A stretch of 15,405 bases of DNA from an uncultured Bacilli bacterium (GCA_947626095.1 CANQQV010000028.1:1-15405), one strand, 5' to 3'. Positions 1 through 14,612 are shown, counted from the stretch's first letter. Numbers and translations: made by a program. Notes: generated by a model from the sequence alone, not told the origin.

Positions 1-76
1 AATAAAAAAATTATTCAAAAAAAATTACGCATAAAAAAACCTCCAGAAAAAATCTGGAGGTTTGTCTACACTCTGA
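1..76 (+). mobile_element. Possible right end of an insertion sequence (IS1182-like), with a transposase C-terminus possibly running in from upstream
   Basis: Hairpin AAACCTCCAGA/TCTGGAGGTTT (37-63) runs into GTCTACACTCTGA. Frame +1 is open 1-144 (NKKIIQKKLRIKKPPEKIWRFVYTL...). I recall FVYSL/FVNSL-type tails and TTTGTCTACAnTCTGA ends from Firmicutes IS1182-type elements. The transposase itself is not in the window. Confidence 0.4.
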
Positions 77-109
77 ACTATTTAAATAAATATTTAAATA
101 GTTTTTTTT
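76..109 (+). terminator. AT-rich hairpin followed by T-run, putative intrinsic terminator
   Basis: AACTATTTAAATA (76-88), AA loop, TATTTAAATAGTT (91-103), then TTTTTT. Confidence 0.5.
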
Positions 110-158
110 ACTATGCAAATTATTTTGGAGAGAATAAATTATGATAGGGGAGGTATTT

Positions 159-578
159 ATGAATAATAACACTAATTGTTTATTGCAATCAGCAAGACAA
201 AAAATAAATAATTATAATGCAAATAATAATTCATCTAATGGAACTTGTTGCGGTTTTAGAGATTTATCAGTTGGTCCACAAGGCCCAACAGGTCCTCAAG
301 GTCCGACAGGACCAACGGGACCTCAAGGTATTCAAGGTGTCCAAGGTATTCAGGGAATTATAGGACCGACTGGTCCTCAAGGTATTCAAGGAATACAAGG
401 TAATCCTGGAACGGTTGGAGCGACGGGAGCACAAGGACCAATAGGACCAACCGGAGCTACAGGTCCAACTGGTCCAGCGGGAGCTACGGGACCACAAGGA
501 ATTCAGGGGTTAATAGGTTTAACAGGTGAAACAGGACCAACGGGACCTACTCATACTCTTAAAAGTGAAAGTAATTAA
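159..578 (+). CDS. Collagen-like protein, 5' part of a split gene (native sequence ends at 550; HTLKSESN* tail comes from the inserted element)
   Basis: SD GGGGAGGT (147-154) precedes ATG 159. Asn-rich N-terminus with Cys-Cys, then 31 consecutive GXY triplets (273-551; GPT/GPQ/GIQ-rich) that stop abruptly at the element boundary. Confidence 0.9.
534..570. repeat. attL-like junction: collagen half-site, AC core (549-550), element arm (551-570)
   Basis: GGACCAACGGGACCT-AC-TCATACTCTTAAAAGTGAAA. The arm 551-570 is the reverse complement of 3777-3796 at 19/20 positions. Confidence 0.9.
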
Positions 579-664
579 AATTATATTTTATTAGTTTTTT
601 ATTAAATTGTTATTATTTTTAATAAATAAAAAAGCCGTTAGCATAAGTTTAAATAGGTGAACTT

Positions 665-778
665 ATGAAAATTACAAGTACATTTAATGAAAAAGGTAAA
701 ACGTTGCAAGAAATAATGGAGCAATTTTTAATTATATTTTATAGTGAAAATATTAGTAAAATAAGATACAAGGATTGA
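665..778 (+). CDS. 37-aa micro-ORF upstream of the recombinase; candidate recombination directionality factor
   Basis: SD-like AGGTGA (655-660), ATG 665, MKITSTFNEKGKTLQEIMEQFLIIFYSENISKIRYKD*. Its TGA (776-778) lies 4 nt before the recombinase ATG. Absent from the supplied ORF track. Function is inferred from position only. Confidence 0.6.
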   Translation: MKITSTFNEKGKTLQEIMEQFLIIFYSENISKIRYKD

Positions 779-782
779 AAGT

Positions 783-2366
783 ATGAGTATTAATGAAACT
801 TATAAAGTTGGTATATATTTAAGATTATCTCGTGATGATTTGAAAGATGATGAAAGTCAAAGTATAAGTTATCAAAGAGATTATATAATGAATTATATTA
901 CACGAAATAATCTAGGATTGATTGATGAATATGTTGATGATGGTGTAAGTGGTACGGAGTTTGATAGAAATGGTTGGAATAGACTAATTGAAGATATAGA
1001 ACGTGGTCGGATTAATATGGTTATTACAAAAGATACAAGTCGTTTAGGTCGTAATATATCACAGAGTTTATATTATTCCACTGAATATTTTCAAGAAAAA
1101 AATGTAAGATATGTTGCTTTAACAGATGGAATAGATACATTTGATAAATCACAAAATACGGATATGTTAATGTTTAAAGCATTTTATAATGAAATGTATG
1201 TAAAAGATATATCTACTAAAATTAAAGCAACTTTAAACTCTCAAAAAAGAAATGGCAAGTTTATGGGTGGTATAGCACCTTATGGCTATGAAAGAAACCT
1301 ACCATACGATAAGCACGAACTTATTATAAATGAAGAACAAGCAACCATAGTTAAAAGAATATATGACTTATTCATAAATGGTATGGGTATCAAGAAAATT
1401 GCTAATCTACTAACTGATGAAAATGTGCCTATACCAAGCATACAAAAAAATCTTAATCGTGGTGTTAAGTCTAGTGTATATGGAATTTGGCAGGAAACAA
1501 CTATAAGTAGTATACTTACTAATCCAACTTATAAGGGAGATTTAACACAATGTCGTGAGTATAAGGTTAGTTATAAATCGAAGAAAAGAAGAAAAAATGA
1601 TAGAAAAAATTGGATTATAGCAAAAGGTGCTTGTCCGGCTATTATTGATGAAGAAACCTTTAATATCGTTCAAGATATGTACTCTAAAAATAAAAATAGA
1701 ACCGATAACTCATTAGAATATCTTTTAAGAGGATTTTTGGTATGTAAAGAGTGTGGACACACTATTTCAATAAGCCAATCGAAATGGTCTTGTAATGGAG
1801 TAAAGAAAACAAAAAACATTTGTTATTGCAACTATTGGAAAAAGTTTTCAAAGTATGATGTATGTACTCCCCATAAAATTGATTATGATGAGTTAGAACA
1901 AGAAGTATTAAAAGATATTAGAAATAAATGTAGAGCATATTTAAAAACAAGTAATTTTGAGGAATTACTAAAAAAAAGTGATAGAATGAATAAGATACAA
2001 TTGGATTTAGAGAAACAATTAACAAAAATCAAAAAAGATATAAAGGAACAAACATTTTTCTTTGATAAATTATATAAAGATAAATTAAAAGGATTAATAG
2101 ATGAAGGAATATTTAAAAGACAATATAACAACCTTACAATTGAAACATTAAACTTAAAGAAAAAAGCAAACGAAATTGAAACAAAGTTATATGCAATTAA
2201 AAATCAAATGACTAATAAAAATAGTATGAAATATAAAAGTATAATTAAAGAGTTTTTATCTTTAAAGAAACCTAGTAAAAAACTCTTAGCATCATTAATT
2301 GATAAAATAGTGATAGACGAGGAACAAAATGTTAATATTTGTTACAAAATAAAATCGTTATATTAA
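783..2366 (+). CDS. Large serine recombinase / serine integrase (resolvase + recombinase + zinc ribbon + coiled coil; SpoIVCA/CisA-like architecture)
   Basis: Catalytic YLRLS motif, DDGVSGT, KDTSRLGRN, APYGY and ILTNPTYKG of the recombinase domain, LLRGFLVCKECG...C...C zinc ribbon, C-terminal coiled coil and LIDKIVI. Confidence 0.96.
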   Translation: MSINETYKVGIYLRLSRDDLKDDESQSISYQRDYIMNYITRNNLGLIDEYVDDGVSGTEFDRNGWNRLIEDIERGRINMVITKDTSRLGRNISQSLYYSTEYFQEKNVRYVALTDGIDTFDKSQNTDMLMFKAFYNEMYVKDISTKIKATLNSQKRNGKFMGGIAPYGYERNLPYDKHELIINEEQATIVKRIYDLFINGMGIKKIANLLTDENVPIPSIQKNLNRGVKSSVYGIWQETTISSILTNPTYKGDLTQCREYKVSYKSKKRRKNDRKNWIIAKGACPAIIDEETFNIVQDMYSKNKNRTDNSLEYLLRGFLVCKECGHTISISQSKWSCNGVKKTKNICYCNYWKKFSKYDVCTPHKIDYDELEQEVLKDIRNKCRAYLKTSNFEELLKKSDRMNKIQLDLEKQLTKIKKDIKEQTFFFDKLYKDKLKGLIDEGIFKRQYNNLTIETLNLKKKANEIETKLYAIKNQMTNKNSMKYKSIIKEFLSLKKPSKKLLASLIDKIVIDEEQNVNICYKIKSLY

Positions 2367-2469
2367 AGTAAATAATCTTAAAAAATGTTAGTAATAAATA
2401 TTTATTATTTATAAAATAACTTCAAAGTGTAAAAAAAATTATAATTTTTGGATGATTATACAACATTTA

Positions 2470-2498
2470 TTGTAAACATATAAAATTTAGTGTAAAAT
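2470..2498 (+). promoter_or_regulatory. Putative sigma-A promoter for the cargo genes
   Basis: TTGTAA (2470-2475), 17 nt, TAAAAT (2493-2498), followed by SD-like AAGGTAGG before ATG 2524. Confidence 0.5.
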
Positions 2499-2523
2499 TT
2501 ATGTAGAAAGGTAGGTTAAATAA

Positions 2524-3069
2524 ATGAAAGGAAAGACAGTTGGAAAAATTGTTGAATGGGTTGAAGAAAACAATGAACATTATCCTGTATTTTTGTTTAC
2601 AACGAATGATAATGTGGAAATAAAATCAAGATGTAAAGTTAAAATAGATAATGAAATATTAGAATCAAGTTTAGAAAGCTTATATGCTTTTGAAACTGTT
2701 AATAAAATATTATTAGTTCCTCTTCCTCATGAGGGAATATATATTTCTTATGATGTTGAAAATCCTAATAATTTTTGCGCAAAATGGGATGTTGATCCTA
2801 AATATTATTTAAATCCAGAAAGTAATAAAAATGAGGAAAAAGAAACAATAATACAACTTATTGGATATTATTTAGCATTAGTTGTATTTCTTATAGTTCC
2901 TTTTTTGGGCCTATTTCTGCCTGGTATGGAGTTGATGCGTTATAAAAACAAATATGAATATGAGCATGAGAAAAGTGCATTACCAAAATTAATTTTGTTT
3001 TCGATATTAATTGTCCTTGAAATTATCTATAGTATTACTTTTATAGTCTTAAATTATATTATTAAATAG
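2524..3069 (+). CDS. Hypothetical membrane protein (element cargo 1)
   Basis: 181 aa with SD. Soluble N-terminal region loosely like DUF3592-type proteins (GKIV...YPVFLFTT...ISYDVENP), plus two C-terminal hydrophobic helices. Confidence 0.75.
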   Translation: MKGKTVGKIVEWVEENNEHYPVFLFTTNDNVEIKSRCKVKIDNEILESSLESLYAFETVNKILLVPLPHEGIYISYDVENPNNFCAKWDVDPKYYLNPESNKNEEKETIIQLIGYYLALVVFLIVPFLGLFLPGMELMRYKNKYEYEHEKSALPKLILFSILIVLEIIYSITFIVLNYIIK

Positions 3070-3079
3070 GAGTAAAATT

Positions 3080-3628
3080 ATGATAGAAAGAATATATAGT
3101 TATAATGATAATAATAAATATTTAAAATTAAATACACTAGATAAGATTGCCATAGCTTTAGGCATTTTTGGTTTGTGTTTTACTTTACTTATTTTAACTT
3201 TGGTTTTAATTGAAGATGACGGAGAATTTGCATATGTAATAGCAATATTTATGGTAATGGAAGTTGTTCCTTGTGCATTATTTTTAGTCGGTTCGAAAAA
3301 TAGGCATTTACATTTGTTAGATACGTGGGTAGTAACTTCAAATAAGGAAATATATTTTATTGAGCCGAACGACTTGGCATTAGAAAAAGAGTTTAGAGAT
3401 ATAAATTATTTAAATAGATTAATTCAAGTTTCTAATAATGCTGATTATGTTTGTTACTATAAACTGGAACAAATTATTGCTATTGAAGAAAATAAAAATT
3501 ATGTTAATGTTAAATTCGTTGGTAAAGGAAACTTTGATCAGAAAAGTGTTAATAAAAATGTTTATGTTATGAAGTCTATGCCTAATTTTAATGAATTAAT
3601 GGAAGATTTAAAAAAGATACATAATTAA
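3080..3628 (+). CDS. Hypothetical membrane protein (element cargo 2)
   Basis: 182 aa, SD AGGAG immediately after the previous stop, two N-terminal hydrophobic helices followed by a soluble domain. Confidence 0.78.
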   Translation: MIERIYSYNDNNKYLKLNTLDKIAIALGIFGLCFTLLILTLVLIEDDGEFAYVIAIFMVMEVVPCALFLVGSKNRHLHLLDTWVVTSNKEIYFIEPNDLALEKEFRDINYLNRLIQVSNNADYVCYYKLEQIIAIEENKNYVNVKFVGKGNFDQKSVNKNVYVMKSMPNFNELMEDLKKIHN

Positions 3629-3720
3629 GGAAAGATTGTTGAAGTAAAAAATAATATATATGATATTTTTTAGTCTATACCATAAATATTATTATAATTA
3701 TTCAACTAATTATAAAATAG

Positions 3721-3747
3721 AAATGATGATACTTTCATCATTTTTTT
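3721..3747 (+). terminator. Intrinsic terminator closing the cargo operon
   Basis: AAATGATGA (3721-3729), TACTT loop, TCATCATTT (3735-3743), then TTTT. Confidence 0.65.
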
Positions 3748-3776
3748 GTTAAATTTTTATGCAAGTAAAATATTCT

Positions 3777-3813
3777 TTTCACTTTTAAGGGTATGAACAG
3801 GTCCAACTGGTCC
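3777..3813. repeat. attR-like junction: element arm (3777-3796), AC core (3797-3798), collagen half-site
   Basis: TTTCACTTTTAAGGGTATGA-AC-AGGTCCAACTGGTCC. Confidence 0.9.
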
Positions 3814-4021
3814 TACAGGACCTATTGGTGAGACTGGTCCACAAGGTGAAACGGGAGCAGCAGGAGCTGATGCACCAACACCAACAATAACTATTGGGAC
3901 AGTAACTACTGGAGCACCAGGATCAACTGCTACGGCTACTTTAACGGGAACAGCACCAAATTATACTTTAGATTTAACTATTCCACAAGGTCCAACTGGG
4001 CCAGCGGGAGCTGCTGCATAA
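3797..4021 (+). CDS. Collagen-like protein, 3' part of the split gene (no start codon of its own)
   Basis: Translates [74 protein letters not shown] (TAA 4019-4021). It is preceded by an in-frame TGA (3794-3796) and is missed by the ORF track. Confidence 0.9.
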   Translation, partial: TGPTGPTGPIGETGPQGETGAAGADAPTPTITIGTVTTGAPGSTATATLTGTAPNYTLDLTIPQGPTGPAGAAA

Positions 4022-4047
4022 TAAAAAGACTTTAATAAGTCTTTTTA
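4022..4047. terminator. Bidirectional intrinsic terminator between the collagen 3' end and the CAP-domain gene
   Basis: TAAAAAGACTT-TAAT-AAGTCTTTTTA with A-run and T-run flanks, directly after the collagen TAA. Confidence 0.8.
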
Positions 4048-5631
4048 TGTTGAGAAAATTTGAACAATATATGTTTTTTTATTGAAGGTCATTTTACCGA
4101 TTCCGGTTTTGGTATACATACCTGTTAAGATAATCTCACGGTGTGGTGGGGAATTCATTAAACCATTAAATGCTAATTTATCTGTTGCGAAGTTGTAGGC
4201 GATTATTTCTGCACGAGCTGAAGGTACTGATAAACCATATTCATCCCATAAAGTTATCCAATAAGTACCATCGGGACGATTATGTCCTTCGAAAGGAATA
4301 TTAGAGTAAACTAATTCCATAGCTCGCATTGTTGCGACCATACATAAGTGATAGTTTAATTCGACTTCATTTAATCCGGCATTTTTACGAACTTGATTAG
4401 TATAATTCATAAAGTTAACTAGAACTTCACCATATTCTTTATTTTCTGTATTTCTAGTATTATAGATATACATAGCTTCTTCTAACATTGTTTTAGCTCT
4501 GCCATTAAATTTATTAAGAGCATAATTAACACTGGTTGAAGGGTAGCCACTGTAATCAGTTATACTATAATGACAGCTAGCATCTCTTTTATATTCGACA
4601 TAGTTAAATGTAATATTTTCTTTTGTACCATAATGATCGATTGATAAAGTGTAGTTATTTGCTTTTTTACTTTCAACAGAGCAACTACGTTTTTCTGGGG
4701 TTATTACGTTAGAAGCATTAAATGAATGAACTGAACTTGGCTTTTTAGATCCACCACTAGGTTTGGTAGTAGAACCACTGCTAGGTTTAGTTGTACTGCC
4801 ACCACTAGGCTTGGTAGTAGAGCTACCACCACTAGGTTTGGTAGTAGAACTACCACCGCTAGGTTTAGTTGTACTGCCACCACTAGGGGTTTGAGGTGCT
4901 GTAATAGTTAGTTTAGTAGTACCTTCATTACAATTATTAGCTATATCACAGACGATTAATGTAACATCTAAGATATTTGCTTTACTTAAATCATATTCTT
5001 CTTTAAAACTAACTGTATAATCGTTTATTTGACTATTATCACTATAGGTATCAACAAAATCTTTGAGATTTAATTCCTTACCAGCTTCAATTGATAATTC
5101 TTTTAAAGTGAAAGTAGGAATAATAGTATCGACAATTGATAGTTTGGTTTCATATTCGTAGTCACCAAAGATAACAACATCGATTGTTCTAATTCCTTTT
5201 AAATAGTAGTCGCCATCTTTTTCATAAGTGAATTGCTCAAGATTTAAAGAATTTTTATTTTCAAAATATTGAGCGGATATATTATCTGGTAGTTCATAAT
5301 CTTCACGAAAATAGTCTTTTAATTCAGGAAGAATGGTTCCTGTTTCAACTACTAATTCTTCTTTTATGTAACCATCTACCAGTTCAATATATTTAATACC
5401 GTCCTCTTCTATATATCTTAGTTTACTTTCATTTTTATTAAGAAGAGAGCTTAAACCAATTGTTATATTAAAGACTGTAAGAATGAAGATAGTTATAGTT
5501 ACGGCAAGGGTAGTATTACTGAATTTTTTACGTAGTTTATCTGTGTCTTCTTGATCGTTATAAGAAATAATATTAGATAATTTTTGGGGAATAGATTTTA
5601 TTGTATTAGTAATCTTATCTATAACTTTCAT
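4045..5631 (-). CDS. Membrane-anchored CAP/SCP-domain protein with S/T/G/K/P linker
   Basis: N-terminal TM helix and low-complexity linker. C-terminal CAP motifs: TNQVRKNAGLNEV, ATMRAMEL, HNRPDG, AEIIA, LMNSPPHREIIL, TGIG, YIVQIF. SD AAGGTG. Confidence 0.88.
   Translation of the reverse strand: MKVIDKITNTIKSIPQKLSNIISYNDQEDTDKLRKKFSNTTLAVTITIFILTVFNITIGLSSLLNKNESKLRYIEEDGIKYIELVDGYIKEELVVETGTILPELKDYFREDYELPDNISAQYFENKNSLNLEQFTYEKDGDYYLKGIRTIDVVIFGDYEYETKLSIVDTIIPTFTLKELSIEAGKELNLKDFVDTYSDNSQINDYTVSFKEEYDLSKANILDVTLIVCDIANNCNEGTTKLTITAPQTPSGGSTTKPSGGSSTTKPSGGSSTTKPSGGSTTKPSSGSTTKPSGGSKKPSSVHSFNASNVITPEKRSCSVESKKANNYTLSIDHYGTKENITFNYVEYKRDASCHYSITDYSGYPSTSVNYALNKFNGRAKTMLEEAMYIYNTRNTENKEYGEVLVNFMNYTNQVRKNAGLNEVELNYHLCMVATMRAMELVYSNIPFEGHNRPDGTYWITLWDEYGLSVPSARAEIIAYNFATDKLAFNGLMNSPPHREIILTGMYTKTGIGKMTFNKKTYIVQIFST
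4735..4887 (-). repeat. Coding tandem repeat (PSGGS[S]TTK, about 6 units of 24/27 bp)
   Basis: PSGGSTTK-PSGGSSTTK-PSGGSSTTK-PSGGSTTK-PSSGSTTK-PSGGSKK-PSS in the CAP protein. Confidence 0.9.
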
Positions 5632-5654
5632 GCTTACACCTTCTACTATATGTA

Positions 5655-5663
5655 ATTATATCA
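5655..5663 (-). promoter_or_regulatory. Extended -10 sigma-A promoter of the CAP gene
   Basis: Minus strand reads TGATATAAT about 24 nt upstream of ATG 5631. Confidence 0.6.
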
Positions 5664-5716
5664 TATTTGACGTTAATATAAAGAAAAAAGAAGCATAAAG
5701 TATAGTGGGTGGTTAG

Positions 5717-6820
5717 ATGAAAAAACATAAAATAACAGTATATGCAATCACGAAAAATGAAGAAAAAAATGTTAAAGAATGGTATCAATCAATGAAAGAA
5801 GCTGATGAGATAATTGTTTTGGATACTGGTTCAGATGATAATACTGTTAAATATTTAAAAGAATGTCCTAAAATAAAAGTGTATGAACAAGTAATAAAGC
5901 CTTGGCGTTTTGATGAAGCAAGAAATTTATCTTTGTCTTATGTATCTTTAGATACTGATATATGCGTGTGTACTGATTTAGATGAAAGATTTAATAAAGG
6001 TTGGGCAGAATTAGTAAGAAAAGAATGGAAGGAAGGAGTAACAAGGGGAAGATATTTATATAATTGGAGTTTTGATAAGTATGGAAAACCAGGAACAACT
6101 TTTTATATAAATAAAATTCATTCACGAAATGATTATATATGGAAACATCCAGTTCATGAAGTATTAAGTTGTCTTACTAAAGAAAAGGAAATTTCAATAC
6201 CAAATTTAGTGTTAAATCATTATCAAGATTATAGTAAGGCAAGAACAAGTTATTTGACGTTACTAGAATTATCAGTTAAAGAAGATCCGGCGGATGACCG
6301 AAATATGCACTATTTAGGTAGAGAATACATGTATTATAAGGAATATGATAAAGCAATAGATACTTTACATAAACATTTAGTTTTACCTTCGGCTACTTGG
6401 AAAGATGAGAGATGTGCATCGATGAGATATATGGCTTATTGTTATTTTAATAAGGGATATATTGAAGAAGCTATTATGTGGAATAAAGAAGCAATTAGAG
6501 AAGCGCCATATTTAAGAGAACCTTATTTTGATTTAGGAAATTTATTTTATTTAATTAAAGATTATGTAAATAGTGAATATTATTTAAGAAAGGCTTTGCA
6601 AATAAAAAAGATAAGTTATACATATATTAATGAGGAAAAAGCTTGGAATGAAACAATATATGATTTATTAGCTTTTGATTGCTATCAAAATAAGAAATAT
6701 AGTGAAGCATATAAATATATTAGAAAAGCAATTAAAATTAATAGTGATGATGAACGATTAAGAAGAAACTATGAAATAATTAAAGAAAAATATCTTAAAA
6801 ATAAAAATAGAAGAGATTAA
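5717..6820 (+). CDS. Family 2 glycosyltransferase with C-terminal TPR repeats
   Basis: ITKNEE, ADEIIVLDTGSDDNT, FDEARNLSL, DLDE (DxD), HPVHE motifs, followed by TPR-like helices (HYLGREY...AI, PYFDLGNLFY). Confidence 0.92.
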   Translation: MKKHKITVYAITKNEEKNVKEWYQSMKEADEIIVLDTGSDDNTVKYLKECPKIKVYEQVIKPWRFDEARNLSLSYVSLDTDICVCTDLDERFNKGWAELVRKEWKEGVTRGRYLYNWSFDKYGKPGTTFYINKIHSRNDYIWKHPVHEVLSCLTKEKEISIPNLVLNHYQDYSKARTSYLTLLELSVKEDPADDRNMHYLGREYMYYKEYDKAIDTLHKHLVLPSATWKDERCASMRYMAYCYFNKGYIEEAIMWNKEAIREAPYLREPYFDLGNLFYLIKDYVNSEYYLRKALQIKKISYTYINEEKAWNETIYDLLAFDCYQNKKYSEAYKYIRKAIKINSDDERLRRNYEIIKEKYLKNKNRRD

Positions 6821-6832
6821 TTCTCTTCTATT
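6806..6832. terminator. Hairpin formed from the 3' ends of two convergent genes, with the shared TTAA stops in the loop
   Basis: AATAGAAGAGA (6806-6816), TTAAT, TCTCTTCTATT (6822-6832): perfect 11-bp stem. Confidence 0.6.
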
Positions 6833-9800
6833 GTATTTATAATTAAGTTTACTTCTTTAGAAGCACGTTCATCATATGGTAAGATGTACTTAATATAATT
6901 ATTCTTTTCAGTTACGAATAAGACAAAATCATCACCTAAGTAGATAGTTTTCATTACACTTAGAGAAACATCTTCAATTAATTCATCAGGATTTTCTAGT
7001 TGCCATAAATACATAATAGCACTTATTTTATCTAAGTATTCTTCACCAATATTATTACTTAATTTAATAACTGTATTTCTTTTTCTTAAGTATTTAGCAT
7101 CAGCATCATAGTATTTAAAGTTGTTTTTATCAACAATGTCATTACTAGCAAGTAGAGTACTTATATTATCTTCATAATTAGTATATATATCATCAGGATT
7201 AAGTAAATTCTTATTAGAAGCAAAATCATCGTAATCAATATATACTTTATTAATTGGATTATTAATAATAGGACATAATGTTGTATCAACATTTAAGCCA
7301 TTACGACTTTGATAGATATTATTATTAACGATAGTAACGTATTCTATTGGTTCGTTATTATCTTTAGTAATACTTATTAAACGCATTGCAAAGTTTCTTA
7401 AAAGTTCATTGTATTCAGTATCTTTACAACCTTCTAAAGCGTTTAAGTATAATGTATTACCATTTCTAAGACCTAAGATTTTAGCAACTAATGTATTGTT
7501 ATAGTAAATTCCTAGTTGAATACCATTTTTATCTAAAATAGAATAATGTAAGAAATCGTTACCAATAGCACCGACTTTAAATAAAGAACCTTTAATACTT
7601 TTTAAGATATCTTGATTATAGTTATCTAAAACTTTTATTTCATAATCATTATCAATGTAGTTTAAATATGGAATAGTACTACTAATCCTTTTAAATGAAT
7701 CTTTAAATAAGTTCATAAGAATTTCAATACGTTTATTTAGATCTAAGACTTCATAGTAACCATCGTCATATGTGGCTTTAATAATATTTTTATCTAAGAT
7801 TTTAGATAATGGATTGTTATCGAAGTTAATTAAAGTAAGAATATTTTCAATGTTAATTAAAGTCATGCTGTTAATATCTAAATCAAGATTAGTGATATAT
7901 TCTTTTATTTTTGGCCATTTAGAGATAATAACGCCCAAGTTATCAACAATACCATCGTAATAACCATCAGCAACCATAATTAAATTCTTTTTATCGATTA
8001 AGAAAGTCTTTAATTCATCATCTATCTTTTGATAGTTGAGTAAATCATAACCATTAAAAATATTTTCAATATCTTTTAAAGATAGAACACGTTTTTTTAG
8101 CTCATAGTATTTAGTAGTAATAGGGAAGGTGAATTCTTCTTTTTCTAAAGCTTTTAAATAGTCATGATTAAAGGCATTTTTAACTTTTTCAGTACTAATA
8201 TTGCGGTTGGCGTAATTAGCTGTTTTGGTGATAATATCATCTAATATTTCTATGTAATTGTTATATTCAATAATTTCGTCAATATTATAAATATCAATAT
8301 TATCTTTATAAATAAACTTATAAGTATTTTTATCGATATATATTTCACCATTTAAGTTTTTTACTAGTTCTTGATATTTATTAATTAATTTTTTAGTCGT
8401 AGGAGTTATTTTAAAAGATAATTCTTCTTGATAGCAGATAGTATTCATTATTTCTAATACTTCATTATCTTTATATGTACTTCTTAATCTTTCAATTTTA
8501 GCATTTAACTCGGTAATACTATTAATATCTTGAAGATACTTTATATAAATATCAGCATCTTTAGGTTTTTTAATACCTAAGTGGTTTAAACAATTCTCTT
8601 TATCAAAGCGATCATTAATAATAGGGGTTAAAACATGTTCTAAGATACTATCAAAATCGACATCTTTACTAGCTAGTAATTTAAGATATTTATCTTTAAT
8701 TTTATCGATTGGATAATTATCTTTAAAATAGGGAATATAAGATTCTTTGTTAGGATCAGTTAAGGCTCTAACAAAGAGTTTGAACTTTAACTTGTTAATA
8801 TACAAATTACCAAATTCTTTTCTTTTGGTATAAATAACTCTTTCTTTAGGCTTAAAGTTTTTCATTATTAATTTATCGAAGTTACTGTTATATTCATTAT
8901 ATTTATTATCAATATATAAAGTAGTGAAGGCGTTGGTATAATCGTATAGTTGTTTTTTAGCGTTGTAGTTATCATAAGATGAATATTTTAGATAATCATA
9001 AAATTTATCAATAATCGAATTATATGTATCAAAATTATTATCTAACATAATATATATAACATTGTCTAAGTAAGTATTTTTTCTTATTTCATTAGCAAAT
9101 TCGTTAATGTTGTTAGTAGGTTCAATATTTTTTAAATTATTTATAATTTTTTTCGCCATATTTTGAAAAATAGATGAATTGTTTTCTTTAAAGATAAGAA
9201 TTCTTTCGTTAATAATATCGTGTTGTAAAGTTTGGATTTCATTTAAAGTTATATTCATATTACCATTATTAACGATTTTTAAAGTTTCATCTAAGCCAAG
9301 AGTTAGATAACTAATTAAAGTACTTTTATAACTTAAAACAGATGGTTTGAAATCTTGTTTAGATAATAATGATTTCATACGAATTGTTTCATATAAATAA
9401 CTAACTTCATCAAAATCTATTTCGTTTATTTGGTCATCACTTAAGTTGAATAACTTTTTAATTAATTGACGATTTTTAAAGATTTTTAAGTCTATTTTTT
9501 CTTCAAAGTAACGATCAATATAAGATATTGTATCAGTTGTGTTAAAAGTATTTAATATTTCCGGAATATCAAAAATCTTGTTTATATTAAGTTTTTTGTT
9601 AAGACATAAATTAATTATTTCGTAATTACTTAATTTATCTAAAATATATGGAAGGGTTATAAAATATAAAACGTCTTCACTATCTAAAAGATTAAGCATT
9701 TCATAAACCATGTTATGTTCTGATTTATAAATAAGAATAGGGCTATCTAAGAAACCTTTAACAAAGATTGCATCTTTATCTGTAACTTTAATATGAAGAT

Positions 9801-10986
9801 TATTAATCTTATCAAAGATAATTTTTCTTTGTAACATATTGAAAGCAGCTTTGAAACTTAATTTGTTAATTAATAATTCAATGGCATATGAACTGGTATC
9901 ATTAATAAAATTATCATCTCTTAAATTATTGACGATATCTTCTTCAGAAAATTTATTATTAATCGCTTCGATAATGATAGTATCGATGAAACGATTAAAT
10001 AGGGAGTAATCATTAAATATTTGAGTTTGTAAATCTTTACTTAGGTCTTCAAAAGGATATACACTAATACTATCTTTAGGACATCTCTTTAAATTATCAA
10101 GACTAAAATAAGTATTAGCATCTTCATTATTATATTTATATAGCTTTTGGATAATAGAACTAAATGATTCGTCGTCTAAATGTTTATCTTTGCTTATTTT
10201 AGTTATTTCGATAATATTGAATAAATCAAGATATTTATGGTTAAACTTACCGATAAAGTTAGGATTAGTTAATAGAAAGTTGTAAATATTTTCATTATCA
10301 ACATTATTAAAAATTAAACCATTAGGTTCGATATAATCATATATTTCTTTATTACTTGTATATAGGTTATAGAAATCTTCAAAATTTTTACATTTCTTTA
10401 ATAATATTTTAGTAAATGATTCTTTAGTTAAGATACGACATGTTTCATTGTTGTTAAGATTTAAAAGAGAAATAACAGAATATGAGCAATTGATATGTAA
10501 ACTAGCAGAAGGTATCTTAGCTATTAATTCATTATCTTTAATAATAGTAGCTAAGAATTCATTATCTTTTAAGTTAATATTATTAATTTCTTCATTAATA
10601 AACAAAATATCTGTATCATTATATCTTTTTTTATCTTTTAGATATGATAGTTTATCATCAATATCTAAAGTATTCCATAATGAAAGGAAAAGACTATTGT
10701 CTTTAATAACTTCTTCATATTCTGTTTGATTATATATAATAGATAATCTTTGTTCTTTATTTAAATTAACGAGAAAATCATTTAGATATTGATCATACAT
10801 ATAATAATTTTCATTAGTTTTAGTTGACATTAGAAGACGTAAGTCTTCAAGAAGATTATCACTATTTTGTAAATACTTAATAATTGCTTCGAGATTATTA
10901 TTATCCTTTTTTGATAGTTTAGAACTCTTGTATAATAAAGAATGAATAATATTTTCTAAGATTACTTTTAATTCATTTATATTCAT
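6817..10986 (-). CDS. Large hypothetical protein (1389 aa), probably cytoplasmic
   Basis: 4.2-kb uninterrupted ORF with SD GAAGGGG. No signal peptide or TM segment seen. No family recognised with confidence. Confidence 0.85.
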   Translation of the reverse strand: MNINELKVILENIIHSLLYKSSKLSKKDNNNLEAIIKYLQNSDNLLEDLRLLMSTKTNENYYMYDQYLNDFLVNLNKEQRLSIIYNQTEYEEVIKDNSLFLSLWNTLDIDDKLSYLKDKKRYNDTDILFINEEINNINLKDNEFLATIIKDNELIAKIPSASLHINCSYSVISLLNLNNNETCRILTKESFTKILLKKCKNFEDFYNLYTSNKEIYDYIEPNGLIFNNVDNENIYNFLLTNPNFIGKFNHKYLDLFNIIEITKISKDKHLDDESFSSIIQKLYKYNNEDANTYFSLDNLKRCPKDSISVYPFEDLSKDLQTQIFNDYSLFNRFIDTIIIEAINNKFSEEDIVNNLRDDNFINDTSSYAIELLINKLSFKAAFNMLQRKIIFDKINNLHIKVTDKDAIFVKGFLDSPILIYKSEHNMVYEMLNLLDSEDVLYFITLPYILDKLSNYEIINLCLNKKLNINKIFDIPEILNTFNTTDTISYIDRYFEEKIDLKIFKNRQLIKKLFNLSDDQINEIDFDEVSYLYETIRMKSLLSKQDFKPSVLSYKSTLISYLTLGLDETLKIVNNGNMNITLNEIQTLQHDIINERILIFKENNSSIFQNMAKKIINNLKNIEPTNNINEFANEIRKNTYLDNVIYIMLDNNFDTYNSIIDKFYDYLKYSSYDNYNAKKQLYDYTNAFTTLYIDNKYNEYNSNFDKLIMKNFKPKERVIYTKRKEFGNLYINKLKFKLFVRALTDPNKESYIPYFKDNYPIDKIKDKYLKLLASKDVDFDSILEHVLTPIINDRFDKENCLNHLGIKKPKDADIYIKYLQDINSITELNAKIERLRSTYKDNEVLEIMNTICYQEELSFKITPTTKKLINKYQELVKNLNGEIYIDKNTYKFIYKDNIDIYNIDEIIEYNNYIEILDDIITKTANYANRNISTEKVKNAFNHDYLKALEKEEFTFPITTKYYELKKRVLSLKDIENIFNGYDLLNYQKIDDELKTFLIDKKNLIMVADGYYDGIVDNLGVIISKWPKIKEYITNLDLDINSMTLINIENILTLINFDNNPLSKILDKNIIKATYDDGYYEVLDLNKRIEILMNLFKDSFKRISSTIPYLNYIDNDYEIKVLDNYNQDILKSIKGSLFKVGAIGNDFLHYSILDKNGIQLGIYYNNTLVAKILGLRNGNTLYLNALEGCKDTEYNELLRNFAMRLISITKDNNEPIEYVTIVNNNIYQSRNGLNVDTTLCPIINNPINKVYIDYDDFASNKNLLNPDDIYTNYEDNISTLLASNDIVDKNNFKYYDADAKYLRKRNTVIKLSNNIGEEYLDKISAIMYLWQLENPDELIEDVSLSVMKTIYLGDDFVLFVTEKNNYIKYILPYDERASKEVNLIINTIEEN

Positions 10987-11027: not shown

Positions 11028-11057
11028 AAAAAGACTTAAGATAATTTAAGTCTTTTT
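11028..11057 (-). terminator. Intrinsic terminator after the sortase gene
   Basis: AAAAAGACTTAA (11028-11039), 6-nt loop, TTAAGTCTTTTT (11046-11057). Confidence 0.75.
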
Positions 11058-12654
11058 ATGAACTTTGTGTAGTTTCATCGGGATTAATGGTTGTTTCTTC
11101 AACTAGAACAGCGTGGACTACTAAACGATTATTATTATCTAAACAAGTAGATAGAGTAACTATTTTATCGTTGCTAGTTAGTTCGACGTCAAATTTTATT
11201 TGACTTCGTTTTTGTAATTTATTGTAGAATTTAAGACGATCGTTGTCCTTTAAGAATGAAGTATATAGATAATCGTTTGTAACATGAATACCATAAACAG
11301 AGAAGATACGCCATTTATAACCATGTTCCATAGTATTATAAGTAATATAATTATTTTCTTCTTTTTCAAAGAAAGATTTTTTACGAAGCTTTTGTAAAGT
11401 ACCAAACATAACACCACTAGAGAAACGGTTATGACCAAAGATAATAGTATTATCTTCTAAATCTTTAGGATTATTACGATAATCCATAAATAACCAGCCA
11501 TTAAAGTCAGTTTCATTATAGAAATTATGATCTAAGTAGTATGCGTTGTCTTCACTTTGAACAACAGGATAATCGACTTTAGTTCCAGGAATCATTAACC
11601 AACCAACCATGTTCTTATTGACTTCTAATAGAGCATCATAAGAACCGGGGATGAAGTATGAAGTATTAACTTCTTCAATATTTTTTGATGTTTCATCACT
11701 AATAATCTGATCGATATCTTGACGAATATCGTTGACTTTTAATTCTGAGTTATAGTTATTATAGAAGATATATCCTAAGACAGAGGCGATTATTATAAAA
11801 ATAATAGAAGCACAAATCTTTAAGGTTGTAAAAATAACTTGTTGTAAATAATTCTTCTCTAAATAATCATCAGAATAGATTAAAGATATTTTTACTTTAT
11901 ATCGATGTTTTAAATCTTTATTAATATTTCTTAATCTAATAATAGCATTTTCATCGTCAATATCATCATGTAATTGAATAGAAAGATTTTTCTTTTTAAC
12001 CTTTTTAATAATGTTGACAATGTTTAGAATATTTTCTTCAGAGTATTTATCAAAATGGATAACTTTAAGATATTTATTAATACTAAAGAAAGTTTCGATA
12101 TCTTTTAAATCATCAACAGTTAGAGTATTAGGAATTCTAACGTTGGTCTTATAATAAATTTTAGAAAATGATGTAAGGTTGTTGGAAGACATGAAGTTAC
12201 TAGTAAATAATACTTCGTAACGAGATTCAACTTTAATATCATTTTTATCCAATAATTCGATTAAGAATTCAGGGATACTATAGCAATCAATTTTTTTAAT
12301 GTTTTTAGCTTTAATTATTTTGTCACATAATTCATAAGAAACTACTTCATCTTCTGTAATAACAAAATTAGTTATTAAATTTAAACGAGATATTATGTCA
12401 ATTATTAGTAAAGCTATTTCTAATGAACTTACTTTAATTTCAGTTATTTCTCTAATCTTAGCTAGATCAGAAAGGAATAAACCAACTAATTTAGAATTTT
12501 CTTTTAAATATTCATCACTAAATACTAATTCGTTATTAGATATAACATTAGTATTTAAAAGATTAGTTGCAACTGGTTTATTAGTACGATACTTAAATAT
12601 TAGGGAATTATCTTGAATTTGAACAGTTATTTTTTTCATCGTACTCATCTCCAT
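11056..12654 (-). CDS. srtB: Class B sortase with a ~270-aa N-terminal extension
   Basis: VGWLMIPGTKVDYPVVQ, DNAYYLDHNF, NTIIFGHN (His), MFGTL, VTLSTC (Cys), RLVVHAVL (Arg). Single TM helix at about residues 272-298. Confidence 0.9.
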   Translation of the reverse strand: MEMSTMKKITVQIQDNSLIFKYRTNKPVATNLLNTNVISNNELVFSDEYLKENSKLVGLFLSDLAKIREITEIKVSSLEIALLIIDIISRLNLITNFVITEDEVVSYELCDKIIKAKNIKKIDCYSIPEFLIELLDKNDIKVESRYEVLFTSNFMSSNNLTSFSKIYYKTNVRIPNTLTVDDLKDIETFFSINKYLKVIHFDKYSEENILNIVNIIKKVKKKNLSIQLHDDIDDENAIIRLRNINKDLKHRYKVKISLIYSDDYLEKNYLQQVIFTTLKICASIIFIIIASVLGYIFYNNYNSELKVNDIRQDIDQIISDETSKNIEEVNTSYFIPGSYDALLEVNKNMVGWLMIPGTKVDYPVVQSEDNAYYLDHNFYNETDFNGWLFMDYRNNPKDLEDNTIIFGHNRFSSGVMFGTLQKLRKKSFFEKEENNYITYNTMEHGYKWRIFSVYGIHVTNDYLYTSFLKDNDRLKFYNKLQKRSQIKFDVELTSNDKIVTLSTCLDNNNRLVVHAVLVEETTINPDETTQSS

Positions 12655-12775: not shown

Positions 12776-13627
12776 ATGAAAGAAATTAAAAATGTATTAT
12801 TGGTTCTTTTAATGTCTGTTTGTTCATTATTAATAGTCAACGTTATGACAGTTAAAGCGCAAGCTGGTATTGGTTTTAGTAATTTGAACCCAGTTTGTGA
12901 TCCAAGTGAAGATTTAAAGCTAGGAGAAAAAACAACTTGTTATGTACTTGGTAAAGGTACAGTAACAGTACCAGAAGGTGACAATGCTGAAAAGCAAGGT
13001 TTAACACACGGTTTTGTTGTAAGAATGTATACAACAGATGGTTTACTTTTTGATGAAGTTCAACCATATATAAATAACACTAATGCTGTTGCTTATTCTG
13101 CATCTGCAGGAAGTGATACACAGAATAGTTTTAAAGCTGGCGATGAAACAGTTAATTTTACTTGTTCATTTAATGGTAATTTAGCTGCTGAAAATTCTGC
13201 TTATCAATTTGAAGCTGGCGATATTTATAAGTGTGCTATTTATTATTCAAATAGTAAAGATCCATTAATTACTGTAAAATCAGGTGAACCAACAACTAAC
13301 ATTCAAGGACTTACAGGAAAAGATAATGGTATCATGGTTATTGGTAAAGTAATAGCTCATATTGATGAAAATAAAAAAGGTGAAACAAGCTGTGGAGAGT
13401 TATGTGTATATTCTACAGAAATAAAAACTACTAGTGAATATCAAAATGGATTACAAAGCTCAGAAAGATATTTATGTACAGAAGTTCACTTCAAAGATGA
13501 TAGTAGTACTTCACCTGGACCAAATACAGGAGCATTTGCCTCATATGCATTATTAGCTGCTGGTGCTTTAGTAGCAATTGGAGCAGTAACAATTGCTAGA
13601 AGAAATAATAAATTCTATAAAGTTTAA
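12776..13627 (+). CDS. Secreted Cys-rich surface protein with sortase sorting signal (GPNTG), copy 1
   Basis: SD AGGAG, signal peptide ending VKA, 7 Cys in the mature part, C-terminal SPGPNTG + hydrophobic helix + RRNNK tail. Confidence 0.88.
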   Translation: MKEIKNVLLVLLMSVCSLLIVNVMTVKAQAGIGFSNLNPVCDPSEDLKLGEKTTCYVLGKGTVTVPEGDNAEKQGLTHGFVVRMYTTDGLLFDEVQPYINNTNAVAYSASAGSDTQNSFKAGDETVNFTCSFNGNLAAENSAYQFEAGDIYKCAIYYSNSKDPLITVKSGEPTTNIQGLTGKDNGIMVIGKVIAHIDENKKGETSCGELCVYSTEIKTTSEYQNGLQSSERYLCTEVHFKDDSSTSPGPNTGAFASYALLAAGALVAIGAVTIARRNNKFYKV

Positions 13628-13760: not shown

Positions 13761-14612
13761 ATGAAAGAAATTAAAAATGTATTATTGGTTCTTTTGATAT
13801 CTGTTTGTTCATTATTACTAGTTAATGTTATGACAGTTAAAGCACAAGCTGGTATTGGTTTTAGTAATTTGAACCCAGTTTGTGATCCAAGCGAAGATTT
13901 AAAACTAGGAGAAAAAACAACTTGTTATGTACTTGGTAAAGGTACAGTAACAGTACCAGAAGGTGACAATGCTGAAAAGCAAGGTTTAACACACGGTTTT
14001 GTTGTAAGAATGTATACAACAGATGGTTTACTTTTTGATGAAGTTCAACCATATATAAATAACACTAATGCTGTTGCTTATTCTGCATCTGCAGGAAGTG
14101 ATACACAGAATAGTTTTAAAGCTGGCGATGAAACAGTTAATTTTACTTGTTCATTTAATGGTAATTTAGCTGCTGAAAATTCTGCTTATCAATTTGAAGC
14201 TGGCGATATTTATAAGTGTGCTATTTATTATTCAAATAGTAAAGATCCATTAATTACTGTAAAATCAGGTGAACCAACAACTAACATTCAAGGACTTACA
14301 GGAAAAGATAATGGTATCATGGTTATTGGTAAAGTAATAGCTCATATTGATGAAAATAAAAAAGGTGAAACAAGCTGTGGAGAGTTATGTGTATATTCTA
14401 CAGAAATAAAAACTACTAGTGAATATCAAAATGGATTACAAAGCTCAGAAAGATATTTATGTACAGAAGTTCACTTCAAAGATGATAGTAGTACTTCACC
14501 TGGACCAAATACAGGAGCATTTGCCTCATATGCATTATTAGCTGCTGGAGCTTTAATTGCTGTTAGTGCTGTTGCTATTGCAAAGAAACATAATAAGATT
14601 TATAGAGTTTAG
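13761..14612 (+). CDS. Secreted Cys-rich surface protein with sortase sorting signal (GPNTG), copy 2
   Basis: Same mature sequence as copy 1. Differs only in the signal peptide and in the TM/tail (LIAVSAVAIAKKHNKIYRV). Confidence 0.88.
   Translation: MKEIKNVLLVLLISVCSLLLVNVMTVKAQAGIGFSNLNPVCDPSEDLKLGEKTTCYVLGKGTVTVPEGDNAEKQGLTHGFVVRMYTTDGLLFDEVQPYINNTNAVAYSASAGSDTQNSFKAGDETVNFTCSFNGNLAAENSAYQFEAGDIYKCAIYYSNSKDPLITVKSGEPTTNIQGLTGKDNGIMVIGKVIAHIDENKKGETSCGELCVYSTEIKTTSEYQNGLQSSERYLCTEVHFKDDSSTSPGPNTGAFASYALLAAGALIAVSAVAIAKKHNKIYRV

Follow-up and report, generated by a model that had tools for sequence, protein, structure and literature searches.

The DNA analysed here, hereafter the window, is a stretch of 15,405 nucleotides that makes up the whole of contig C28 in a metagenome-assembled genome (MAG) of an uncultured rabbit-gut bacterium. 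This MAG is referred to as G000 (G and L labels denote the genomes and loci that were compared); it comprises 1.62 Mb in 34 contigs with ~28% G+C, at 91% completeness and 7.9% contamination. Near one end of the window lies a collagen-like gene whose two halves are held apart by an inserted element encoding a large serine recombinase (LSR), and we are close to certain of this structural part of our explanation, that the gene is split by an LSR element.

The split collagen-like gene and its junctions

The 5' half of the gene (159–550, plus strand; Pfam Collagen, E 4.3e-17) encodes a 38-residue, Cys-containing N-terminal part that ends in CCGFRD and is kept in orthologues, followed by Gly-X-Y (GXY) triplets encoded at 273–550. 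We place the start at the ATG at 159 and not at 141, the former being the one conserved among orthologues. As it stands, the reading frame enters the element and stops at 576–578, and in the integrated state the protein is cut after 130 residues, to which nine element-encoded residues are added. The 3' half (3799–4021, plus strand) is in frame from 3800 with its stop at 4019–4021, and contains 12 GXY triplets and, at 3860–4018, the coding sequence of a short C-terminal domain with its tail, with 89% identity to the C-terminus of the orthologue in G005; it has no start of its own, in that no open reading frame (ORF) of at least 50 aa with a start codon covers it. The GXY codons break at GGA CCT AC (550) and restart at A GGT CCA ACT (3799), such that the split falls within a Thr codon, and removal of 551–3798 in silico yields an in-frame 204-aa ORF that begins at the ATG at 159 and has 39 GXY triplets in one continuous run, the tail of the rebuilt protein containing TPTITIGTVTTG. 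This interruption and its repair by deletion were at the heart of the original prediction, as was the intactness of both halves and of the recombinase with a 3' half lacking a start; a script returned the same 204 residues and 39 triplets, and the remainder is borne out by an ORF scan, Pfam domains and in-silico joining. A terminator was also predicted right after the stop codon, and here the outcome is divided. There is a strong terminator-like hairpin at 4021–4050 (12 bp, dG -13.8 kcal/mol, z -6.0, with 0 of 200 shuffles as good), common to the collagen-like gene and a convergent neighbour, but it is absent from the output of a stricter terminator scan. The collagen-like gene is the only one of its kind in the G000 genome.

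The junctions have the anatomy of recombinase attachment sites. The element occupies 551–3798 (plus strand), its length of 3,248 bp being counted with one AC copy left to the gene, and it contains the LSR gene, a small ORF (orf37) and two cargo ORFs. At attL (529–575, plus strand) a gene-side arm is followed by an AC crossover at 549–550 and the element-side arm TCATACTCTTAAAAGTGAAAGTAA at 551–574; at attR (3772–3819, plus strand) the element-side arm extends to 3796, with the AC crossover at 3797–3798 and the gene-side arm AGGTCCAACTGGTCC beyond it. The identical AC dinucleotides at 549–550 and 3797–3798 are the only target duplication. The junction pair (533–575 against 3772–3814; 43 nt, 81% complementary) forms the longest inverted repeat within 100–4100, the element-side arms being reverse-complementary at 20 of their first 22 positions, and the gene-side arms matching at all of the first six and at 13 of the first 16. 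The insertion point is the AC of a Thr codon inside a codon palindrome made by adjoining Gly-Pro-Thr (GPT) triplets, with the minimal motif GGNCCNACNGGNCC. This motif occurs nine times in the 1.6-Mb G000 assembly, every time in the collagen-like gene, which explains the target specificity; the rebuilt gene has ten candidate sites.

Five sequencing runs were represented by Logan assembled contigs, those of X1, X2, X3 and X5 being compared with the window. Contigs from three runs (two samples of one study) cross both junctions without differences (X3 432–791, X1 2877–3859, X2 3033–3812 and X3 3519–3838), and since independent contigs bridge both junctions, an assembly artefact of the MAG does not account for the insertion. 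The assembled contigs show the integrated form, with neither a joint of 550 to 3799 nor a circle junction among them, and as contigs drop rare variants this has no bearing on excision.

Relatives carry the gene without interruption. The convergent neighbour, a CAP/YkwD-like gene at 4045–5631, is matched by an orthologue in 13 of the 24 other genus members compared, and in none of 16 genomes outside the genus. Among 20 loci examined by tblastn, both collagen halves are contiguous beside this neighbour in seven genomes (G005, G010, G009, G018, G023, G008 and G014). We read the orthologue in four of these, G005, G010, G009 and G018, and each is a single ORF (223, 188, 221 and 190 aa), with the same N-terminus (CCGFRD) and a GXY run; three share the C-terminal domain, the exception being G009 with a related domain in mid-protein. 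Uninterrupted alleles in relatives, which the original prediction proposed to look for, are therefore present as single ORFs in four sibling species, and the split gene is a normal conserved chromosomal gene of these species.

The recombinase, its small partner and a family of related elements

The LSR gene (783–2366, plus strand) encodes 527 aa with the catalytic Ser16 in the motif YLRLS, and this serine is invariant across 12 sequences. The protein matches Resolvase (PF00239, 3e-23), Recombinase (PF07508, 9e-24) and Zn_ribbon_recom (PF13408, 5e-8), all above cut-off, as well as the phrog_95 integrase (E 1e-95). We assign it to the LSRs on these catalytic, recombinase and zinc-ribbon parts together with half-site junctions around a 2-bp crossover. 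The closest solved structure is the TnpX catalytic domain (2mhc, E 2.5e-23, residues 10–119), and the best NCBIfam match is CcrB, at 134 bits against a cut-off of 900. The LSR would be expected to catalyse integration and, with a directionality factor, excision.

Four nucleotides upstream of the LSR gene lies orf37 (665–778, plus strand), which encodes 37 aa beginning MKITSTF.E.GKTLQEIMEQFL... An ORF of this type (31–37 aa, consensus MKITSTFDENGKTLQEIMEQFLIIF.NEN) is found directly upstream of the LSR in all 13 elements of the family described below, and its variable columns fall at codon positions 1, 2 and 3 in 12, 6 and 23 cases (of 28 columns), as expected of a translated gene. When its profile was compared with 10,630 small ORFs, the best matches outside the clade were at L033, L060, L041 and L038 (E 5e-5 to 5e-3), all of them directly upstream of LSR genes with 36–42% identity. 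The window's orf37 abuts or overlaps the LSR gene, as is the case in three elements in total, and the other ten of the 13 have a spacer of 31–100 nt. A hairpin over the orf37 start (dG -9.5, z -1.5) is not significant, and the interval from the stop of the 5' half (576–578) to orf37 (665) contains neither a terminator-like site nor a strong fold. In the gin element, which lies within gerE of Bacillus cereus ATCC 10987 and encodes the LSR GirC together with its recombination directionality factor GirX, the latter is a protein of only 6.5 kDa that often goes unannotated (PMC5595907). Because a directionality factor can be this small, it is a reasonable inference that orf37 is a candidate accessory or directionality factor.

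The two cargo ORFs follow the LSR gene. The first, orf181 (2524–3069, plus strand; 181 aa), has two C-terminal hydrophobic segments by eye, and the second, orf182 (3080–3628, plus strand; 182 aa), has two at its N-terminus. Neither these nor orf37 have a match in Pfam, NCBIfam, PHROGs or PADLOC, and orf181 and orf182 are absent from the other elements of the LSR family. There is no replication, phage, resistance or mobilisation gene among the family matches of the element's proteins. The proposal of a minimal, phage-free element is thus upheld by the absence of phage genes among the Pfam and PHROGs matches and by a scan of viral contigs that gave no match.

A scan of bacteria and archaea with one genome per species identified 12 further loci with LSRs 75–91% identical to that of the window, in MAGs from several projects whose labels are uncultured Bacilli, Firmicutes or Candidatus Coprovivens. 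Within the genus, LSR matches are present in 17 of 27 genomes, the only close one being in G013 (85% identity) and the next best at 45%. G013 carries an 8.8-kb element in a different collagen-like gene and locus, with the same arm sequences and AC at both junctions. Flanks are visible at 11 of the 12 loci, the twelfth being a 1.6-kb contig without them, and at all 11 the element ends have this type of arm and border directly on GXY codons. Read along the coding strand of the collagen gene, the crossover is AC, which in every case supplies the first two bases of a Thr codon. With the window and the genes that carry two elements included, there are 14 insertion events in total, and the arm type is present at the ends of 13 related elements. 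In-silico excision keeps both frame and triplet register in all nine loci that have both junctions and gives apparently complete proteins in eight, L069 having a short 3' part that may be decayed; there is no stop or frameshift at any of the 14 insertions.

In a tree of 29 rows, restricted to ORFs of 430 aa or longer whose catalytic motif is close to the start, the LSRs of collagen-like genes group together as a single clade (support 100/100), while the deep branches are not resolved; several loci are left out of this tree, including L059 and L084 (spoVD), L045 (ABC), L050 (SEDS) and L057 (LysM). As judged from the junctions, a monophyletic LSR clade is shown to use the collagen codon palindrome as its attachment site, and the new collagen-targeting family of LSR gene-intervening elements is real. 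A collection of metagenome contigs yielded one partial locus without junctions (L075), a collection of viral contigs contained no family member, and in phage and plasmid collections all LSR matches were below 60% identity.

The elements measure between 2.6 and 10.2 kb and differ in cargo. The LSR gene is usually ~50 bp from the right arm, the window being exceptional in that its LSR is on the left with the cargo downstream. The window element and those at eight of the 11 flanked loci are oriented in the direction of the gene. We also observed that the second element at L063 has genes for a uracil permease and for a uracil phosphoribosyltransferase, that a cargo ORF at L069 (4511–5143, minus strand) has a zinc-dependent phospholipase C domain match (E 1.6e-7), and that L070 (7732–9695, minus strand) has two tandem transglutaminase-like cargo ORFs.

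Spore formation, the collagen-like protein and other split genes

The G000 genome encodes Spo0A (Spo0A_C), SpoIVA (SpoIVA_ATPase), SpoIIGA (Peptidase_U4) and SpoVAC/EB, with a sigE-like gene (244 bits) beside SpoIIGA and a sigK-like gene at 290 bits, just under the cut-off of 299. With five kinds of sporulation gene present, the host is, on its gene content, an endospore former, and the Spo0A, sigE-like and sigK-like genes are those for which a check had originally been recommended. SpoIVA is present in all 12 host genomes of the element family.

The collagen-like protein itself is probably a spore-surface protein. It shares with BclA a GPT-rich triple-helix region (39 triplets, Pfam Collagen), the lack of a signal peptide by eye, an adjoining glycosyltransferase gene and a spore-forming host, and BclA_C- or C1q-like ends are found in three sister targets: those at L064 and L066 match BclA_C at E 1.6e-7 and 2.7e-8, below the Pfam cut-off, and that at L067 has a C1q match just above cut-off. 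It is unlike BclA in that a short Ig-like end, of a kind also present in phage tail fibres, takes the place of BclA_C, and a Cys-containing N-terminus, directly before the triple helix, that of a leader of the B. cereus type. By eye the protein has no wall anchor. BclA is glycosylated on GPT threonines. Outside the element, the window has a family 2 glycosyltransferase (GT2) gene fused to tetratricopeptide (TPR) repeats (5717–6820, plus strand; GT2 6.6e-12, TPR_2, TPR_P4H 28.7 bits), TPR_P4H being the model of the peptide-binding TPR of prolyl-4-hydroxylase. A GT2-TPR gene is immediately downstream of the interrupted genes at L066 (12426–13511) and L064 (12352–13434), and the pairing of collagen and GT2-TPR genes would be compatible with a BclA-like glycoprotein. 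We note the GT2-TPR protein as a candidate collagen-repeat glycosyltransferase.

Two other identities were considered for the gene and dropped. A prophage tail-fibre remnant does not fit neighbours that are chromosomal and syntenic across species, and for a secreted Scl-type adhesin the NCBIfam matches are far below cut-off and cover the repeats only.

Collagen-like genes are not the only targets of such modules in this lineage. At L079 (G054:C23, 103–5867, minus strand), in the genome that also harbours L074, an element of 4,280 bp interrupts spoIVA after RTPW and encodes an LSR 36% identical to that of the window, an ABC ATPase and membrane proteins. Directly upstream of its LSR gene is a 61-aa ORF homologous to orf37 (hhalign probability 81%), and excision in silico gives a SpoIVA of 494 aa. 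G047 (L080/L081) has spoIVA split at the same codon as G054, and only the N-terminal part of spoIVA was seen in G012. The spoVD gene (TIGR02214) is split in five of 27 genomes of the genus (G007, G024, G012, G019 and G042, the last at L059). In G007 (L084, G007:C29:29000-36000, 425–6551) its parts are 4.2 kb apart on one contig, with the break in the GSTFK active-site motif and an LSR-like ORF and redox-type cargo between them. The 3' half of yabG (residues 109–282, E 5e-65) abuts an LSR gene at L055 (G012:C63, 935–1465), and G012 thus appears with spoIVA, spoVD and yabG all interrupted. Parts of SafA/ExsA-type LysM genes begin right after LSR genes at L035, L039 and L057, and at L038 and L050 an LSR gene adjoins what is left of a SpoVE/FtsW/RodA-type gene, namely its final 31 residues. 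On these gene structures, related LSR modules split the true mother-cell sporulation genes spoIVA, spoVD and yabG. As a separate observation, yabG matches fall in two adjacent ORFs without an element between them in G000 (C5:87507-88278), G005, G010 and G008; in G000 these encode 95 and 173 aa and are ~80 nt apart, which could be a natural split or a shared frameshift.

Models for excision and their significance

The arrangement suggests a model with several steps. The LSR would cut and rejoin the DNA at the two AC dinucleotides, releasing the element as a circle and restoring the gene for a 204-aa BclA-like collagen glycoprotein, with orf37 acting as a directionality or accessory factor. Since orf37 and the LSR gene are downstream of the 5' half in the same direction and have no detectable terminator before them, transcription of the collagen gene may run on into both and could itself drive excision. 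The least certain step is that excision would take place in the mother cell during sporulation, as it does for skin, SPbeta and gin, such that the germ line keeps the element and the spore gets the collagen. Our confidence in the full chain, including sporulation-timed excision, is tentative and falls a little short of even. Its appeal derives from the type of target, the spore-forming hosts, the intact halves, and kindred LSR modules in genes that need rebuilding for sporulation.

Several observations weigh against this model. The C-terminal domain of the collagen-like protein resembles phage tail-fibre families (phrog_4120, 'minor tail protein', E 2.9e-9, over residues 18–71 of the 3' half), neither the window halves nor the G010 orthologue match BclA_C (PF18573), and an exosporium leader of the B. 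cereus type is lacking; NCBIfam includes a model for this leader, and its scan with the 5' half and the G010 orthologue gave collagen-adhesin models only. The families of SpoIIID and of the alpha/beta small acid-soluble spore proteins were not found in this 91%-complete MAG. In a scan with B. subtilis-type consensus patterns there is no full sigE or sigK promoter match within 1–4200, and so none before the collagen gene, before orf37 or before the LSR gene; matches to the -10 part only are at or below shuffle means in the same interval, and no sigE/sigK match lies upstream of orf37 in ten of the 13 elements. A generic sigma-70 scan is likewise at chance (29 found, 28.6 expected), and when the sequences upstream of the orthologues are aligned, an AT-rich box is seen to be conserved ahead of the ribosome-binding site. 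In six of the ten orf37–LSR spacers there is by eye an extended -10-like TGnTATAAT. The elements at L063, L072 and L073 run opposite to the gene, and read-through from the collagen promoter therefore cannot be a general trigger. The family is patchily spread, being present in two of the 27 genus genomes, and its elements sit in different collagen genes at different positions, as an actively mobile element would. Two genes carry two elements each (L063, 4740–19186; L068, 1–4051), separated by 11 and 14 GXY triplets respectively, and larger members encode a Cro/CI-type helix-turn-helix protein (HTH_3), as ordinary inducible mobile elements do. Finally, one LSR type in the lineage splits a non-sporulation gene, that of an ABC-transporter ATPase (L045 in G010, and contig C1 of G000), so not every LSR target is a sporulation gene. 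On C1 (~42.2–54.1 kb) there are two further LSR genes (42237–43859, minus strand; 51453–52958, plus strand) and an ABC-ATPase ORF (44456–44878) that stops right after the signature motif, and the matching 3' part abuts a related LSR in G010.

Many of these features could equally belong to a selfish site-specific element, for which the collagen palindrome is simply a conserved and dispensable landing site, the gene is knocked out, excision is sporadic and serves transfer, and the halves are intact as the insertion is recent. We regard this as a genuine possibility, if a somewhat doubtful one. The patchy distribution, the variety of genes, positions and orientations, and the double insertions are all in keeping with it, as are the accessory-type cargo (uracil permease and phosphoribosyltransferase, transglutaminase-like and phospholipase-C-like proteins, HTH_3), the sigma-A-like promoter seen by eye before the LSR in six relatives with no sigE/sigK consensus, the possibly decayed 3' part of the L069 target, and the use of an ABC-ATPase gene as a target in the lineage. 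The closest solved relative of the LSR is moreover the recombinase of a transposon, Tn4451, and TnpX excises and inserts without a directionality factor. It fits less well that eight of nine rebuilt targets are complete, with no stop or frameshift at 14 insertions despite LSR divergence to 75% identity, and that the single collagen gene of G000 is kept in synteny in at least seven sibling genomes (tblastn), which argues that the gene matters. LSR modules are also found in spoIVA, spoVD and yabG with intact halves, where a permanent knock-out would abolish sporulation. We note that the selfish and developmental views are not mutually exclusive, as an element that lands in, and leaves, a mother-cell gene costs the host nothing, and that double insertions, variable orientation and sigma-A-like LSR promoters fit a hopping element as well as a developmental switch.

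A further model is that excision and re-integration provide vegetative ON/OFF phase variation, giving subpopulations with and without surface collagen that might, for example, escape phages or host immunity. The LSR and the att-type arms are intact, orf37 and the LSR gene point in the same direction as the collagen gene with no terminator in between, so that they could be expressed whenever it is, and the rebuilt gene has ten candidate sites. However, an excised 3.2-kb circle with no replication gene would be lost on division, which makes the switch one-way, the absence of a signal peptide or wall anchor by eye means that this is not an obvious vegetative surface protein, and in three runs the assembled contigs have the element in place. 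We consider phase variation improbable. That the split is an assembly artefact or chimera, as might be feared for repetitive collagen sequence when the contig is short and the MAG is 7.9% contaminated, is extremely improbable given the Logan contigs that bridge both junctions and the exact LSR-site anatomy that recurs in 12 other assemblies from several projects.

If mother-cell excision and mobility are combined, the result is a broader picture in which small-genome spore-forming gut Bacilli (Candidatus Coprovivens and kin) would assemble their spore-surface collagen genes by excision in the mother cell, an LSR clade would have evolved to read the GPT palindrome and would hop and stack within it, and the 31–37-residue peptide would be its directionality factor. 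The family would then be one arm of a rich LSR set (spoIVA, spoVD, yabG, SafA-like and possibly spoVE), and sporulation would depend on several rearrangements. We think it rather unlikely that this picture holds in its entirety.

One of the closest known systems is gin, which is likewise a small non-phage LSR element with a tiny partner ORF inside a short coding region, where exact excision rebuilds the gene (PMC5595907). It differs in that its target is gerE, whereas here the target is a collagen-like repeat gene with a repeated codon palindrome as the site and many candidate sites and genes. It also has three LSRs, as compared with one here, and its excision, timing and directionality factor are demonstrated, whereas for the present element they are proposed. 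LSR-mediated interruption of mother-cell genes is also reported for skin (sigK) and SPbeta (spsM) of Bacillus subtilis and skinCd of C. difficile (PMC4191935, PMC5499854, PMC5025042), and in elements of the skin/SPbeta type a separate small factor sets directionality (PMC4191935). Unlike these prophages and prophage remnants, which span tens of kb and occupy one fixed site, the element described here is 3.2 kb, with relatives down to 2.6 kb, has no phage genes and belongs to a family with many independent insertions. Douillard and colleagues reportedly described in 2023 a prophage-like insertion element in yabG of Clostridium botulinum, to which the yabG 3' half abutting an LSR gene in a sibling genome (L055) is similar; that case, a recent addition to the targets of this phenomenon, is prophage-like and differs in target from the element of the window. 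Tn4451 and Tn5397 (TnpX/TndX) and the Ccr-moved SCCmec resemble the present element in being small non-phage elements moved by an LSR. They are unlike it in that identity is far below the family cut-offs, and the present element has no resistance or mobilisation genes, an AC dinucleotide and a collagen palindrome as target; only the catalytic domain is TnpX-like, and we do not place the element in the Tn4451/Tn5397 family.

Interruption of sporulation genes by LSR elements, with excision in the mother cell, is an established phenomenon, as in skin, SPbeta, gin and the yabG element. The literature searched contains no report of a collagen-like LSR target, in agreement with what was originally supposed, although supplementary tables (for example the lists of intervening elements in the Abe papers) were not covered and could contain one. 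Nor did we find a report, supplementary files again aside, of an LSR attachment site that is a repeat-coding palindrome, or of a split spoIVA. If excision is timed to sporulation, a structural spore-surface gene and a whole target family would join the genes built by programmed DNA rearrangement, and the 31–37-residue peptide, if its proposed role is correct, would be the smallest known directionality factor. The system would also illustrate a route of spread in which the site is imposed by the protein's own Gly-Pro-Thr repeat codons, and as the attachment site is forced by these codons, any collagen-like gene would be a landing pad. Should excision prove not to be programmed, the elements would still exemplify clearly how a mobile family can specialise in a motif that encodes a repeat. 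These never-cultured bacteria, with split spoIVA, spoVD and yabG, look like a natural laboratory for gene-intervening elements, and the closely related LSRs of the family, whose site pairs can be read from sequence and whose candidate partner is tiny, are the kind of material used for genome-integration tools and for studies of directionality.

The remainder of the window contains three further features of note. A 1,389-aa ORF at 6817–10986 (minus strand) has no Pfam or NCBIfam match. It is followed at 11056–12654 (minus strand) by a gene for a class B sortase (TIGR03064, 185 bits) with an unusually long N-terminal extension of ~280 aa, and this adjoins two nearly identical tandem genes (12776–13627 and 13761–14612), each encoding 283 aa with a weak LPXTG-anchor match.

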